From: Eledone cirrhosa
Taxonomy: Eukaryota
Direction: 5' to 3'
DNA: 64,000 bases
NCBI GenBank assembly: GCA_964016885.1
Contig: OZ024742.1
Location: 17,732,001-17,796,000 of the forward strand
Below, in pieces: positions 15,518 to 22,792 of this stretch; the first letter of the stretch is position 1, and each line of letters starts with the position of its first letter. The translations under genes were made by a program, and so were the position numbers. Below the pieces are notes generated by a model. It saw only the letters and a program-made list of their open reading frames with translations, was not told where the DNA came from and ran no database searches.

Positions 15518-15591
15518 AGGCTCCAGAGGGATTCGAACCCTCGACCTCCAGTTTACTAGACTGGCGCTCTATCCAACTGAGCTATGGAGCC
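15518..15591 (-). tRNA. tRNA-Thr(AGT): tRNA-Thr(AGT), intact
   Basis: Acceptor GGCTCCA/TGGAGCC, D-arm GCTC/GAGC, anticodon AGT, T-arm GAGGG-TTCGAAT-CCCTC; T-run downstream. Confidence 0.93.
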
Positions 15592-15828
15592 ACGCTGGAC
15601 TCTATACTGTATCCTACCTATTAAATAAACAGCTGTTACAAACAATAGTCACTAGAAGTTGAAAAAAAGATTATTTTTATAATTAATCCTTATTCTGAGA
15701 TGTCAGTAAGATACGGAAGGAGATAATTTTTAACATAGTATAGAAGTAGTAGTACACGTTAATATATTAGCTGCTAGAACTCTACACGCATGGGTAAATC
15801 ATATATGTGAGTGTGTCTGCGTGTATAT

Positions 15829-15922
<94 letters not shown>

Positions 15923-15925
<3 letters not shown>

Positions 15926-16502
15926 CTTCATTCTTGCTCTTGTGTTGGCATGTAAACAGAACTACAGGCCCTAATGTTTCTGGGTATCACCCTTCATCAG
16001 TACAGCTCACTGTTTACCTGCCAACTGTCAGAGCTAGCGAAAATATATGCTATTTTCTAAAATATACACTGAGTGATCGCCTGATTTGCATATTAACTGA
16101 CTGGCTGATAAATCAGATCTGCATATTAGCAGATCCACTGATAGCCAGATTTGCATATCAGCAGACTGGCCAGTCAGTTTCCTGTATACGAGCGATAAAT
16201 GGCCGGCTTTGCTAAATTCAAATAAATATAGAATGTTCGTTCTACATGGCTGAATACAATAAATGTCATGTGAGTTTTTCAAATATTGATAACAACATTC
16301 AATTCGTTTGCAATTATGCAAACAAAGCACATTTTTAACGCCATGTCAGTAGAATGAACCCTTCATTCTTGCTCTTTGTGTTGGCATGCGAACAGAACTG
16401 CAAGACACTAATGTTTCTGGGTATCACCCTTCATCAGTACAGCTCACTGTTCACATGCCATCTGTCAGAATTAGTGAAAATATATGCTATTTTCAAAAAT
16501 AC
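15923..16502 (-). mobile_element. Retrozyme-like element (unit 1): two ~140-bp direct repeats 435 bp apart, each with a hammerhead (15961-16006, 16397-16443)
   Basis: Minus strand CTGTA-CTGATGA-AGGGTGATACCCA-GAAA-CATTAGTG-TC-..; extended stem I; ATTTGCAT at 16084 and 16149. Confidence 0.8.
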
Positions 16503-16566
16503 AGAAGAAGAAGAATTTACAATTGTGTAATAATAAAGATATTTATTTTAAAATAATTGTTGTAGA

Positions 16567-16640
16567 AGTCTTCAGGAGATTCGAACACTGGTACTCCCAG
16601 TTTACTAGACTGGCGCTCTAACCAACTGAACTATGGAGCT
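16567..16640 (-). pseudogene. tRNA-Thr(AGT) degenerate copy
   Basis: Same broken T-stem variant as 14496. Confidence 0.8.
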
Positions 16641-17617
16641 ACGGATACTTTACAACCTATTCTAACTGATAAATAATGTTACAATAGTGACTAGTAGTCG
16701 ACAATAATTATTCACAGAAATGTCATGTCACTACTGTACGGAAGGAGATAATTTTCAACATATGGAAGGAATATGTGTTCACGGTTCTAAAGCTGAATTT
16801 TAAAAACCCACTGTACAAGGTCCCCAAAATGTTATACATTTGAAACCAAAACGTAAAGGACGTAATTCTATGGCCGTGAAGTGTGGTGTCCGATGTGGTG
16901 TCCGATTCTATCAGTTCACCACCCTTATATAATGGCTTCCCGATGTACACACAAAGCCAACAATTTGGGGAGAGGGGAATTTGATTACATTGACTCCAGT
17001 GTATTACTGTTACTTTATTTTATCGCAGTTGATTCCTAGAAGCAGCTGAAATGGTGTTCTTCTGAAGGGTGTTTGGTAGGGTGCATAACTTTGAGATCTT
17101 GGAGTCGCTCCAGATAGAGCCTTGCCTTCTCCCAATTGAGATATCACAGCTCCGATACTACGGACATGTGGTTAGAATGTCTAAGGAAAGAATCGGTGGA
17201 TAGATTTTACGGGCAAAGCCATGCCGGCAGGTGACCCATAGAAAGATGAAGAGCAAATTGCTCAAATAACATCCATAAGTTGGGTGTTGTGGATTATAGA
17301 ATTGGATATACTAGATCATACACTTGGAGTACATTTCTTTGATAGGATCCTCTGGAAGGCATGTCCCAGATTGTGAACCCACAATCTTCCCGTAAATAAG
17401 TGGGGAGAAAAAAGAAGGTGGAGGTGGGAAGTGAAGAAGAAGAAGAAGAAGAAGAAGAAGAAGAAGAAGAAGAAGAAAAGAAGAAGAAGAAGAAGAAGAA
17501 GAAGAAGAAGAAGAAGGAGGAGGAGGACGAGGAAAAGGGTGAAGAATAAGAAAAAAAAGCTTTAATTTACAAAGAAATTTCTTTTTCTTTTTTAAAAAAA
17601 AAAAGGTATTTTGCAGA

Positions 17618-17692
17618 AGGCTCCAGAGGGATTCGAACCCTCGACCCTCCAGTTTACTAGACTGGCGCTCTATCCAACTGAGCTATGGAGCC
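17618..17692 (-). tRNA. tRNA-Thr(AGT): tRNA-Thr(AGT), intact apart from one extra base in the variable loop (possible sequencing error)
   Basis: Identical to the 15518 copy except GACCCTCC versus GACCTCC. Confidence 0.85.
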
Positions 17693-17916
17693 ACGCTGGA
17701 CTCTAATACTGTATCCTACCTATTAAATAAACAGCTGTTACAAACATAGTCACTAGAAGTTGAAAAAAAGATTATTTTTATAATTAATCCTTATTCTGAG
17801 ATGTCAGTAAGATACGGAAGGAGATAATTGTTAACATAGTATAGAAGTAGTAGTACACGGTTCTAGAACTCTACATGCATGGGTAATCATATATGTGAGT
17901 GTGTCTGCGTGTATAT

Positions 17917-17954
<38 letters not shown>

Positions 17955-20052: not shown

Positions 20053-20629
20053 CCTTCATTCTTGCTCTTGTGTTGGCATGTAAACAGAACTGCAGGCACT
20101 AATGTTTCTGGGTATCACCCTTCATCAGTACAGCTCACTGTTTACATGACAACTGTCAGAGCTAGCGAAAATATATGCTATTTTCTAAAATATACACTGA
20201 CTAATCGGACTGATTTGGCATATTAACTGACTGGCTGATAAGTCAGATCTGCATATTAGCAGATCCACTGATAGCCAGATTTGCATATCAGCAGACTGGC
20301 CAGTCAGTTTCCTGTATACGAGCGATAAATGGCCGGCTTTGCTAATTCAAATAAATAAAGAATGTTCGTTCTACATGGCTGAATACAATAAATGTAATGT
20401 GAGTTTTTCAAATATTGATAATAACATTCGATTCGTTTGCAATTATGCAAACAAAGCACATTTTTAACGCCATGTCAGTAGAATGAACCCTTCATTCTTG
20501 CTCTTGTGTTGGCATGCGAACAGAACTGCAGACACTAATGTTTCTGGGTATCACCCTTCATCAGTACAGCTCACTGTTCACATGCCATCTGTCAGAATTA
20601 GTGAAAATATATGCTATTTTCAAAAATAC
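20053..20629 (-). mobile_element. Retrozyme-like element (unit 3): hammerheads at 20089-20134 (GCC) and 20525-20570 (GUC)
   Basis: Same structure as units 1-2. Confidence 0.8.
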
Positions 20630-20695
20630 AGAAGAAGAAGAACAATTTACAATTGTGTAATAATAAAGAAATTTATTTTAAATATTTTTTGTAGA

Positions 20696-20770
20696 AGGCT
20701 TCAGAGAGATTCGAAAACTGGTACTCCAGTTTACTAGACCTGGCGCTCTAACCAACTGAACTATGGAGCT
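20696..20770 (-). pseudogene. tRNA-Thr(AGT) degenerate copy
   Basis: Broken T-stem; 1-nt insertion in the anticodon stem. Confidence 0.8.
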
Positions 20771-21662
20771 ACGGGATACTTCACAACCTATTCTAACTGA
20801 TAAATAATGTTACAATAGTGGATTAGTAGTCGACAATCATTATTCACAGAAATGTCATGTCACTACTGTACGGAAGCAGATAATTTTCAACATATGGAAG
20901 GAATATGTGTTCACGGTTCTAAAGCTGAATTTTAAAAACCCACTGTACAAGGTCCCCAAATGTTATACATTTGAAATTAAAACGTAAAGGGACGTAATTC
21001 TATGCCGTGAAGTGTGTTGTCCGATGCTCCACCGATTCTATCAGTCCACCACCCTTATTTAGACACAAATTTCGGGAGAAGGGAAAGTCGATTACATTGA
21101 CCCCAGTGTATTACTGTTACTTTATTTTATCGTAGCTGATTCCTAGATGCAGCCGAAATGGTGTTCTTCTGAAGGGGTGTTTGGTAGGGTGCGTAACTTT
21201 GAGATCTGGGAGTCGCTCCAGATAGAGCCTTTCCTTCTCCCAATTTAGATATCACAGCTCCGATACTACGGACATGTGGTTAGAATGTCTAAGTAAAAAA
21301 TCGGTGGATAGATTTTACGGGCAAAGCCATGCGGCAGGTGACCCTTAGAAAGATGAAGAGCAAAATGCTCAAATAACATCCATAAGTTGGGTTGTTATTA
21401 CTTGGGGATCAATAAGGATCAATTGGAGTACATTTGTTCTGATAGGATCCTCTGGAAGGCATGTCCCCAGATTGTGAACCCACAATCTTCCCGTGAATAT
21501 GTGGGAGAAAAAAGAAGTTGGAGGTGCGAGGTGAAGAAGAAGAAGAAGAAGAAGAAGAAGGAGGACGAGGACGAGGAAAAAGGTGAAGAATAAGAAAAAA
21601 AGCTTTAGTTTACAAAGAAATTTCTTTTTCTGTTTTTAAAGATAAGAAAGGTACTTTGCCGA

Positions 21663-21736
21663 GGGCTCCAGAGGGATTCGAACCCTCGACCTCCAGTTTA
21701 CTAGACTGGCGCTCTATCCAACTGAGCTATGGAGCC
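21663..21736 (-). tRNA. tRNA-Thr(AGT): tRNA-Thr(AGT), intact cloverleaf, discriminator C instead of T
   Basis: Body identical to the 15518 copy. Confidence 0.88.
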
Positions 21737-21978
21737 ACGCTGGACTCTATACTGTATCCTACCTATTAAATAAACAGCTGTTACAAACAATAGTCACTAG
21801 AAGTTGAAAAAACGATTATTTTTATAATTAATCCTTATTCTGAGATGTCAGTAAGATACGGAAGGAGATAATTTTAACATAGTATAGAAGTAGTAGTACA
21901 CGGTTAATATATTAGCTGCTAGAACTCTACATGCATGGGTAATCATATATGTGAGTGTGTCTGCGTGTATATATACAA

Positions 21979-22065
<87 letters not shown>

Positions 22066-22072
22066 CATATAT

Positions 22073-22651
22073 ACCCTTCATTCTTGCTCTTGTGTTGGCA
22101 TGTAAACAGAACTGCAGGCACTAATGTTTCTGGGTATCACCCTTCATCAGTACAGCTCACTGTTTACCTGCCAACTGTCAGAGCTAGTGAAAATATATGC
22201 TATTTTCTAAAATATACACTGACTGATCGGCCTGATTTGCATATTAACTGACTGGCTGATAAGTCAGATCTGCATATTAGCAGATCCACTGATAGCCAGA
22301 TTTGCATATCAGCAGACTGGCCAGTCAGTTTCCTGTATACGAGCGATAAATGGCCAGCTTTGCTAAATTCAAATAAATAAAGAATGTTCGTTCTACATGG
22401 CTCAATACAATAAATGTCATGTGAGTTTTTCAAATATTGATAACAACATTCAATTCGTTTGCAATTATGCAAACAAAGCACATTTTTAACGCCATGTCAG
22501 TAGAATGAACCCTTCATTCTTGCTCTTGTGTTGGCATGCGAACAGAACTGCAGACACTAATGTTTCTGGGTATCACCCTTCATCAGTACAGCTCACTGTT
22601 CAAATGCCAACTGTCAGAATTAGTGAAAATATATGCTATTTTCAAAAATAC
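22073..22651 (-). mobile_element. Retrozyme-like element (unit 4): hammerheads at 22111-22156 (GCC) and 22547-22592 (GUC)
   Basis: Same structure as units 1-3. Confidence 0.8.
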
Positions 22652-22718
22652 AGCAGAAGAAGGAGAATTTACAATTGTGTAATAATAAAGATATTTATTT
22701 TAAAATAATTGTTGTAGA

Positions 22719-22792
22719 AGGCTTCAGAGAGATTCGAACACTGGTATTCCAGTTTACTAGACTGGCGCTCTAACCAACTGAACTATGGAGCT
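22719..22792 (-). pseudogene. tRNA-Thr(AGT) degenerate copy
   Basis: Broken T-stem and acceptor mismatches. Confidence 0.8.

Follow-up and report, generated by a model that had tools for sequence, protein, structure and literature searches.

In this study, the module with hammerhead-like motifs in a tRNA-Thr array was found to be a 1.3-unit copy of a dispersed 437-nt repeat; a single insertion into a tRNA-Thr array that already existed probably brought it there, and it has since been duplicated as a passenger, a reading given a probability of about 0.85. The family is dispersed in the genome, the array copies form one clade with common junctions, the older units of the array are module-free, and the 15.1-16.1 pair of the second hammerhead is broken.

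The array starts at 12713 of the window (the whole 64-kb stretch of DNA analysed; Table 1). On the minus strand, four intact tRNA-Thr(AGT) genes and four decayed copies occur in alternation (Rfam 68-73 and 22-41 bits, respectively), and each module-bearing unit (n = 4, about 2.0-2.1 kb each) comprises an intact tRNA-Thr(AGT), a decayed tRNA-Thr and a 576-nt module. The first three units measure 2100, 2086 and 1959 nt; the last, cut by the gap at 23486-23685, is at least 1823 nt long. The first-pass annotation had placed a module in every unit; this holds for these four, and the units at 12713, about 13549 and 14496 are module-free. The four-fold repetition might in part be an assembly artefact beside the gap, the real unit number being smaller or larger. 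The array does run into the 200-nt N gap, and many inter-unit differences are single-base homopolymer indels. However, gapped alignments show 4-7% difference between units, and the four modules contain 20 segregating sites, several of them common to pairs. An artefact is extremely improbable, and it would bear on copy number and not on module presence.

Table 1. Features of the tRNA-Thr array and its modules (positions in the window)
Feature	Positions	Strand	Remarks
tRNA-Thr(AGT), opening unit of array, module-free	12713..12786	-	71.2 bits
tRNA-Thr copy, heavily decayed; ~1-kb module-free unit	13549..13621	-	ends approximate
tRNA-Thr copy, decayed; ~1-kb module-free unit	14496..14568	-	
Unit 1 tRNA-Thr(AGT), intact	15518..15591	-	73 bits
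Unit 1 (TA)n at module 3' end	15824..15923		
Unit 1 retrozyme-like module	15925..16500	-	1-nt insertion after hammerhead A cleavage triplet; hammerhead B with U16.1C and a stem III change
Unit 1 tRNA-Thr, decayed	16567..16640	-	22.2 bits
Unit 2 tRNA-Thr(AGT)	17618..17692	-	68.2 bits; one extra G in variable loop
Unit 2 (TA)n	17912..17953		
Unit 2 retrozyme-like module	17955..18530	-	1.3 monomers of 437-nt family
Unit 2 hammerhead B	17977..18053	-	GCC; A15.1.C16.1 mismatch; stem II with extra G
Unit 2 spacer, octamer motif ATGCAAAT x2	18116..18188	-	18116-18123, 18181-18188; both also in family majority sequence
Unit 2 hammerhead A	18414..18489	-	GUC triplet; core bases complete; A.A mismatch at 10.1/11.1; cleavage predicted 3' of nt 18434
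Unit 2 tRNA-Thr, decayed	18600..18673	-	34.9 bits
Unit 3 tRNA-Thr(AGT), intact	19704..19777	-	73 bits
Unit 3 retrozyme-like module	20053..20627	-	
Unit 3 tRNA-Thr, decayed	20696..20770	-	23.1 bits; not called by ARAGORN
Unit 4 tRNA-Thr(AGT), intact	21663..21736	-	72 bits
Unit 4 retrozyme-like module	22075..22649	-	
Unit 4 tRNA-Thr, decayed	22719..22792	-	41.2 bits
Assembly gap, 200-nt N, cutting array	23486..23685		

Eight CUGAUGA...GAAA motifs were located on the tRNA strand (22586, 22150, 20564, 20128, 18467, 18031, 16437 and 16000), in ~140-nt repeats flanking a 296-nt spacer. The order described earlier, two hammerhead repeats about 435 nt apart with GUC in the first (A) and GCC in the second (B), was recovered in all four module-bearing units at a spacing of 436-437 nt. 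The ~140-nt repeat folds far better than shuffled sequence (z -6.3 and -4.5), and 11 matches to a type I descriptor were counted in the 64-kb window versus 0.2 in block-shuffled sequence; 8 further hammerhead-like motifs lie in these 64 kb. The consensus core C3 U4 G5 A6 N7 G8 A9 G12 A13 A14 A15.1 U16.1 H17 (PMC3088659) is complete in 4/4 A repeats and 0/4 B repeats. U16.1 is missing from repeat B in 4/4 units, where the A15.1-U16.1 pair is broken because the triplet is GCC; this U16.1C is array-specific, and additional breaks occur in single copies. The array module therefore falls outside the definition of an "active" retrozyme as one with two consecutive complete hammerheads (10.64898/2026.07.22.740005). 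The 10.1-11.1 base pair of the canonical type I hammerhead (PMC3088659) is replaced by A.A in 8/8 array repeats, and the Rfam scan proposed in the first-pass annotation returned no hammerhead family at the gathering threshold or even at E<=10. The hammerheads have type I topology and, in A, all core bases, but they are not canonical. The longest stop-free frame across the module has 98 codons.

A search of the 3.0-Gb genome with a 32-nt core pattern revealed 1,266 exact matches, against 0 for the reversed control. Of 3,744 candidates, 40 were scored, and 36 of these were near-full-length copies beyond the array with 88-92% identity. The family monomer is 437 nt long, tandem, and has 37.8% GC. 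Dispersed copies are 1.3-1.9-mers that continue past the repeat into a second spacer, the longest sampled one (836 nt) being below two full monomers. An LTR-type structure with terminal repeats was rejected, the two repeats being the overlap of a 1.3-mer of the tandem monomer. Dispersed copies contain two longer antisense frames, neither with a Pfam match. Position U16.1 is T in 89/91 dispersed repeats, and A.A occurs at 10.1/11.1 in 85/91 (51/57 in another sample); intact core bases with type I topology, found in 43/57, are the usual state, as in array repeat A. In the predicted minimum-energy fold, the core is paired with the stem III strand about 10 kcal/mol below the hammerhead fold, an energy that leaves out tertiary contacts and Mg2+. 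The A.A mismatch, the missing Rfam match and this core-masking predicted fold are a family-wide oddity and not specific to the array. The family hammerhead could be a natural variant, with an A.A mismatch where stem II begins and a core-masking fold, that is active in source elements, at slightly less than even odds. Such a variant, if switched on only as a dimer, would escape Rfam and descriptor searches; that it is so switched and that the intact array hammerhead A has also been kept to cut tRNA-unit transcripts is, taken jointly, very unlikely.

The four modules are mutually 97.9-100% identical (gaps ignored) versus 88.7-92.5% to dispersed copies. They form one clade (support 100/100), their insertion junctions are identical in 4/4, and an array-specific 30-mer is present in these four modules and nowhere else. 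One clade with common junctions argues for a single insertion followed by amplification with the tRNA unit, in agreement with the capture suggested earlier. The array appears older than the insertion, because intact and decayed tRNA subunits are about 0.28 changes per site apart versus 0.05 for the stem of the module clade. Unequal crossing-over may then have amplified the unit, module included. The one 30-mer searched revealed no sister subfamily carrying the spacer variants of the array.

ARAGORN called tRNAs at none of the dispersed loci, with 0/26 and 0/30 loci (six overlapping other loci) at about +-1.5 kb, 0/40 at +-5 kb, and 0/96 over all samples. Control windows likewise had tRNAs in 0/20 (and a family copy in 1/20), so only a strong tRNA association is excluded. 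Within 70 kb around the main tRNA cluster, ARAGORN called 80 tRNAs with no family copy between them, and the approximately 67 tRNA-Thr(AGT) calls of the cluster are all without the module; one 283-nt family copy lies about 6 kb outside. A tRNA-targeting element was rejected on these counts (0/96 loci, none within the 80-gene cluster), weak enrichment being poorly powered. The module is not bound to tRNA genes. To the earlier question of whether the family is dispersed or enriched at tRNA genes, the answer is dispersed; wide dispersal, seen here together with absence inside the main tRNA-Thr cluster, was also the first of the marks that had been named for a fossil passenger.

Of the two roles considered at first, the passenger is favoured, and cutting of read-through transcripts is not supported. 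Hammerhead A might have been co-opted to cut array read-through or to insulate the downstream intact tRNA, which would have favoured amplification of the unit. This is highly improbable, even though module and tRNAs are co-oriented with intact tRNAs directly downstream, recent amplification is confined to the module-bearing dimer unit, and the B box is retained in 2/4 decayed tRNAs. The shared orientation equals a coin toss, because there was only one insertion event. T4/T5 runs upstream of the ribozyme would form a read-through barrier, a T5 run separating hammerhead A from the decayed tRNA in 4/4 units; the main-cluster tRNA-Thr(AGT) genes manage without the module; and changes since amplification affect both hammerheads. 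A skew between repeats and spacer also speaks for co-option: array-fixed changes number 9/280 in repeats and 21/296 in the spacer (p=0.04), and array-fixed rare alleles 5/280 and 17/296 (p=0.016). The skew weakens when clustered changes are counted once (p=0.07-0.38), a like skew is seen in 3/26 dispersed copies, and pooled dispersed copies have equal rates in repeat and spacer (4.1% and 3.9%). Two array changes, G46T and G49A, strengthen distal stem I and, like the complete core of hammerhead A in 4/4 units, count against the passenger reading. The change in distal stem I that had been read as compensatory, and as selection on the fold, proved one-sided: the pair is G-C in 46, G.U in 32 and A-U in 1 of 91 dispersed repeats, and since G.U is a common family variant, A-U needs a single change. 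At the variable positions 110/111 (CG 29, TA 27, CA 20 and TG 8 in the 91 dispersed repeats) pairing is kept in all four combinations, which was not counted as selection because CpG decay and subfamilies would also yield such variants.

The array copy could instead be a retrozyme locus that is still transcribed, its own promoter-like motifs driving Pol II and hammerhead A cutting while the tRNA genes gain nothing; this is unlikely. There are two octamers per monomer, with 7 in the four modules versus 4 elsewhere in the window, and the octamer is part of the newt satellite 2 promoter. For that satellite, PMC2220036 describes an internal snRNA-type Pol II promoter. The intact core of hammerhead A fits transcription as well, as do the predicted circular fold of the array monomer (z -6.3, 40 shuffles) and the stem III loop, which is 10/10 self-complementary, a requirement for dimeric hammerhead cleavage (PMC4209133). 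On the other hand, site B has A15.1.C16.1, and a unit-length monomer or circle is therefore unlikely. The core-masking fold, together with a cofold minimum about 19 kcal/mol more stable than the A+B double hammerhead, likewise disfavours cleavage in prediction, again in energies that leave out tertiary contacts and Mg2+, and the fold of the array monomer is weaker than that of the family majority sequence (-132.6 vs -163.0; z -9.8 for the latter as a circle, 40 shuffles). On the favoured reading, that of a duplicated passenger, the array copy would have lost efficient unit-length RNA release and would have no role in tRNA expression.

A retrozyme-like module with a link to Penelope-type insertion, in line with the first-pass annotation, was supported. 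An inverted 5' piece was found in 24/50 and 18/40 loci, and 36/50 and 18/40 had (TA)n on the 3' side. Microsatellite flanks obscure any target-site duplications at the junctions, which in non-LTR retrozymes are larger than 4 bp when present. The family as a whole has 5' truncation, inverted 5' pieces, microsatellite targets and a preferred 3' end; the array copy is 5'-truncated and has (TA)n but lacks an inversion, and its 3' end is atypical, at monomer position ~140, whereas 38/50 dispersed copies end at 240-279. Three head-to-head direct junctions join family copies to Penelope-like RT/GIY-YIG fragments, and in a junction search only the query locus spanned the junction among 40 scored of 1,248 candidates. 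Penelope neighbours occurred at 6/89 loci versus 2.9% in controls, a difference that is not significant (p=0.19) and for which the queries came from the same loci. An autonomous element with the family repeat as pLTR was not found in five extended loci. Judged by its sequence, the family resembles a non-LTR retrozyme and carries Penelope-type insertion marks; the reverse transcriptase and endonuclease that copied it into (TA)n may have come from a Penelope-like element.

Similar to metazoan non-LTR retrozymes (Cervera and de la Pena 2020, PMC7229834), the family is a non-coding tandem monomer. Its 437 nt lie inside their 150-450-bp range (mussel, 350-390-bp; axolotl, 330/350-bp; coral, 220-245-bp), and its 38% GC is under their 50% criterion. 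Type I topology, a long distal stem I, a predicted circle with strong self-pairing, a copy number in the thousands and co-occurrence with Penelope-like elements are also common to both. It differs from those retrozymes in the A.A mismatch at its stem II base (U.U in the axolotl Amex2 family), the missing Rfam hammerhead match, sampled copies below two full monomers, and a copy in a tRNA array with its second site broken. With Penelope-like elements and their pseudo-LTRs (10.1101/2021.04.23.441226; PMC4209133; PMC11167929; 10.64898/2026.07.22.740005) it shares 5' truncation, partial tandems, inverted 5' pieces, (TA)n targets, preferred 3' ends and a self-complementary stem III loop suiting dimeric hammerheads, whereas the module is without RT or GIY-YIG coding and has full stems I-III instead of a minimal motif. 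Newt satellite 2 and the Schistosoma hammerhead satellites (PMC2220036, PMC7229834) are likewise hammerhead-bearing repeats with candidate internal promoter motifs, here the octamers; unlike these long satellites, the family consists of dispersed short partial tandems, and its promoter is putative. Among predicted retrozyme dimers, 1/9 cleaved in vitro (10.64898/2026.07.22.740005), a base rate in favour of the passenger reading. A literature search returned no description of a hammerhead inside a tRNA array or of the 437-nt family, although supplements to PMC4209133, PMC7229834 and PMC3088659 may list related motifs.

If hammerhead A did cut array read-through, it would provide a case of ribozyme co-option at tRNA genes, for which the literature search found no precedent in print. 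As a tRNA-plus-ribozyme system, the array is of minor importance, being most likely one of thousands of insertions carried along by local duplication. The main yield is the family itself, an abundant retrozyme-like repeat missed by Rfam, with a fixed non-canonical core, octamers and clear Penelope-type marks. With this repeat, one could test cheaply whether an A10.1.A11.1 hammerhead functions as a dimer and how Penelope enzymes are used by retrozymes.

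The window is part of contig C3 in a genome of 3.0 Gb, and its SINEs may be similar to those of cephalopods. The tRNA-Thr(AGT) array identified in the window by ARAGORN and Rfam lies on the minus strand and runs from 12713 to a gap at 23486. Its first three units (12713, ~13549 and 14496) are about 1 kb each and contain no hammerhead module; the next four are dimer units, 2100, 2086, 1959 and at least 1823 nt long. Read along the tRNA strand, each of these leads from a decayed tRNA through a short (TTC)n, the 576-nt module, a (TA)n tract and a flank to an intact tRNA. Two CUGAUGA...GAAA motifs are found per module, 436-437 nt apart, with GUC in the first repeat (A) and GCC in the second (B). 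The first-pass annotation described this anatomy correctly for the four dimer units, but its statement that every unit carries a double hammerhead fails for the three module-free ones. The four amplified intact tRNAs have the D-loop variant GGAU in common (usually GGUU), which is usable as an expression marker. Two minisatellites were also observed in the window: one with 21 copies of a 36-bp repeat (11187-11942), close to the tRNA array but not part of it, the other with a 41-bp repeat spanning ~2 kb (48355-50363).

The module belongs to a dispersed family. Among 40 candidates that were scored, out of 3,744, it was matched outside the array at 36 places, nearly at full length and with 88-92% identity. 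Exact matches to a 32-nt core pattern number 1,266 genome-wide (reversed control, 0); since an exact match is seen in only 24 of 57 unselected repeats, we roughly estimate ~3,000 family cores. The sequence of dispersed copies continues beyond the second repeat, indicating a tandem element with a monomer of 437 nt, whose insertions are partial multimers no longer than 836 nt. Among 50 sampled loci (26 chosen for full length, six overlapping loci removed, one duplicate pair retained), the 5' junction carried an inverted piece in 24, (TA)n adjoined the 3' end in 36, and the copy terminated at monomer positions 240-279 in 38. In 40 further loci taken in pattern-list order, the inverted piece was present in 18 and (TA)n in 18. 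These marks agree with those reported for Penelope-like elements (10.1101/2021.04.23.441226, PMC11167929). The monomer is non-coding, has 38% GC and folds strongly as a circle (z of -6.3 for the array, -9.8 for the family majority), which, together with the insertion marks, argues for retrozyme-like behavior. The family is probably a member of the non-LTR retrozymes, a placement that depends on putative cleavage and expression. Two copies 360 kb apart (L036 and L037) have common flanks and ends, a sign of local duplication. Copies ending near monomer positions 170-225 (L111, L119, L120, L126, L131, L147 and L150) adjoin an abundant SINE-like repeat in the opposite orientation; such directly followed copies suggest that the AT-rich spacer is a hot spot for SINE insertion.

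In three cases, a family copy directly abuts, in head-to-head orientation, a Penelope-like RT/GIY-YIG fragment truncated at its 5' end. The fragments at L085 and L086 represent one element family (90% identity over 1.4 kb), with cut points within about 6 nt. RT/GIY-YIG neighbors were not in significant excess over controls (6/89 loci vs 2.9%, p=0.19). The junctions are possibly the footprint of the mobilizing enzyme.

Coordinates of tRNA genes, junction loci and additional motifs (C1 and C2 are contigs of the E. cirrhosa genome, G000)
Feature	Position	Strand or type
Amplified intact tRNA	window 15518-15591	minus
Amplified intact tRNA	window 17618-17692	minus
Amplified intact tRNA	window 19704-19777	minus
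Amplified intact tRNA	window 21663-21736	minus
Head-to-head junction L085	G000:C2 ~187.39 Mb	
Head-to-head junction L086	C1 ~44.02 Mb	
Head-to-head junction L087	C1 ~72.33 Mb	
Other hammerhead-like motifs, inverted pair	window 5802(-)/6015(+)	
Other hammerhead-like motifs, inverted pair	window 43311(-)/43468(+)	
Other hammerhead-like motifs	window 47235(+), 52181(-), 31050(-), 59881(-), 63699(+)	

Hammerhead-like motifs are common in the window: 8 descriptor hits elsewhere in it come from other families, vs 0.2 in shuffled sequence. Of the other motifs in the table, two sets lie in inverted pairs, like the pseudo-LTR motifs of Penelope-like elements. The motifs in the table have palindromic stem III regions and represent at least four further repeat families.

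The 437-nt family is not linked to tRNA genes, in that a strong link is excluded by ARAGORN searches near dispersed loci (0/26, 0/30 and, at +-5 kb, 0/40; controls 0/20). The main tRNA-Thr cluster (G000:C1:243648070-243700071; 80 ARAGORN tRNAs in 52 kb, 67 of them Thr(AGT)) contains no family copy, and one 283-nt copy lies ~6 kb outside; no copy was found in 20 kb at a paralogous tRNA 440 kb away. A family fragment also occurred in 1 of 20 control windows. Many tRNAs of the main cluster show decay, and in some the anticodon has shifted (ACT, AAT, TGT).

The four modules form a single clade (100/100; stem 0.05) with 97.9-100% mutual identity, have 30 differences from the dispersed majority in common, and agree in their junctions. 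Because the intact-tRNA and decayed-tRNA subunits are ~0.28 apart, these data indicate that the array is older than a single module insertion. A tRNA-Thr array with diverged subunits would already have been present; one module would then have inserted, replacing roughly 0.6 kb of the original unit (or that part was lost later), and the dimer unit would have been amplified at least four times. The array module ends atypically, at monomer position ~140, which suggests that ~100 nt were lost from its 3' end after insertion. We consider it quite probable (about 85%) that the module owes its place in the tRNA array to an accident of insertion followed by duplication.

Fixed array changes bear on this reading. 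The repeats carry fewer of them than the spacer does (9/280 vs 21/296, p=0.04; second count, 5/280 vs 17/296, p=0.016), whereas the two rates are equal in dispersed copies; this deficit counts against neutrality. However, it weakens to p=0.07-0.38 when clustered changes are counted once, a variable poly-T tract accounts for part of it, and the skew also appears in 3/26 dispersed copies. Each decayed tRNA is followed at a distance of 68-71 nt by a T5 run, which precedes the ribozyme; T4 runs are present as well. T-runs of this kind terminate Pol III transcripts. Each monomer has two octamers, an element linked to snRNA-type promoters. By analogy, they could support Pol II transcription, as does the snRNA-type promoter of newt satellite 2 (PMC2220036). 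The distal stem I change, initially considered compensatory, proved to be a single pairing-neutral change rather than a double one. This pair is G-C in 46, G.U in 32 and A-U in 1 of 91 dispersed repeats; repeat A is the G-C variant, and in repeat B the 3' side is that of the G.U variant while one G has changed to A.

A type I hammerhead can be drawn for repeat A, whose core is intact as is usual in the family (43/57 repeats); its elements are stem I (5 bp), a 4/2 internal loop, a distal stem of 12-13 bp, stem II (4 bp) and stem III (3 bp). The stem III strand and loop are self-complementary (10/10), an arrangement reported for dimeric cleavage (PMC4209133). In repeat B, position 16.1 is C in all four units (T in 89/91 dispersed repeats), leaving an A.C mismatch in monomer and dimer forms alike; judged by the hammerhead consensus, site B is likely poor or dead. 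Only one of nine predicted dimers cleaved in one study (10.64898/2026.07.22.740005), and by its criterion of two complete consecutive motifs the array copy is not an active retrozyme. Literature searches of main texts revealed neither a tRNA-plus-hammerhead array nor a description of the 437-nt family. Giant squid has 235 Rfam hammerhead loci (PMC6962438). The 437-nt repeat is a new, retrozyme-like family of an already known kind.

Positions 10.1/11.1 hold a non-canonical A.A in 8/8 array and 85/91 dispersed repeats. This pair is described as the most conserved after 15.1-16.1 in PMC3088659, which records an active U.U case and discarded mispaired hits; an axolotl family with U.U is weakly active (PMC7229834). 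In the lowest-energy predicted fold, calculated with tertiary contacts omitted, the core is engaged by the stem III strand through pairing of ACUGAUG with CAUUAGU (window 18414-18489); this fold is put at -39.0 kcal/mol, vs -29.2 kcal/mol for the hammerhead fold. In predicted folds of the 91 dispersed repeats, the core was paired in 77, open in none and unclassified in 14. Both the A.A and the core-masking fold are family-wide rather than array-specific, in a family missed by Rfam even at E<=10. The interest of this system rests mostly on its family-wide A.A core.
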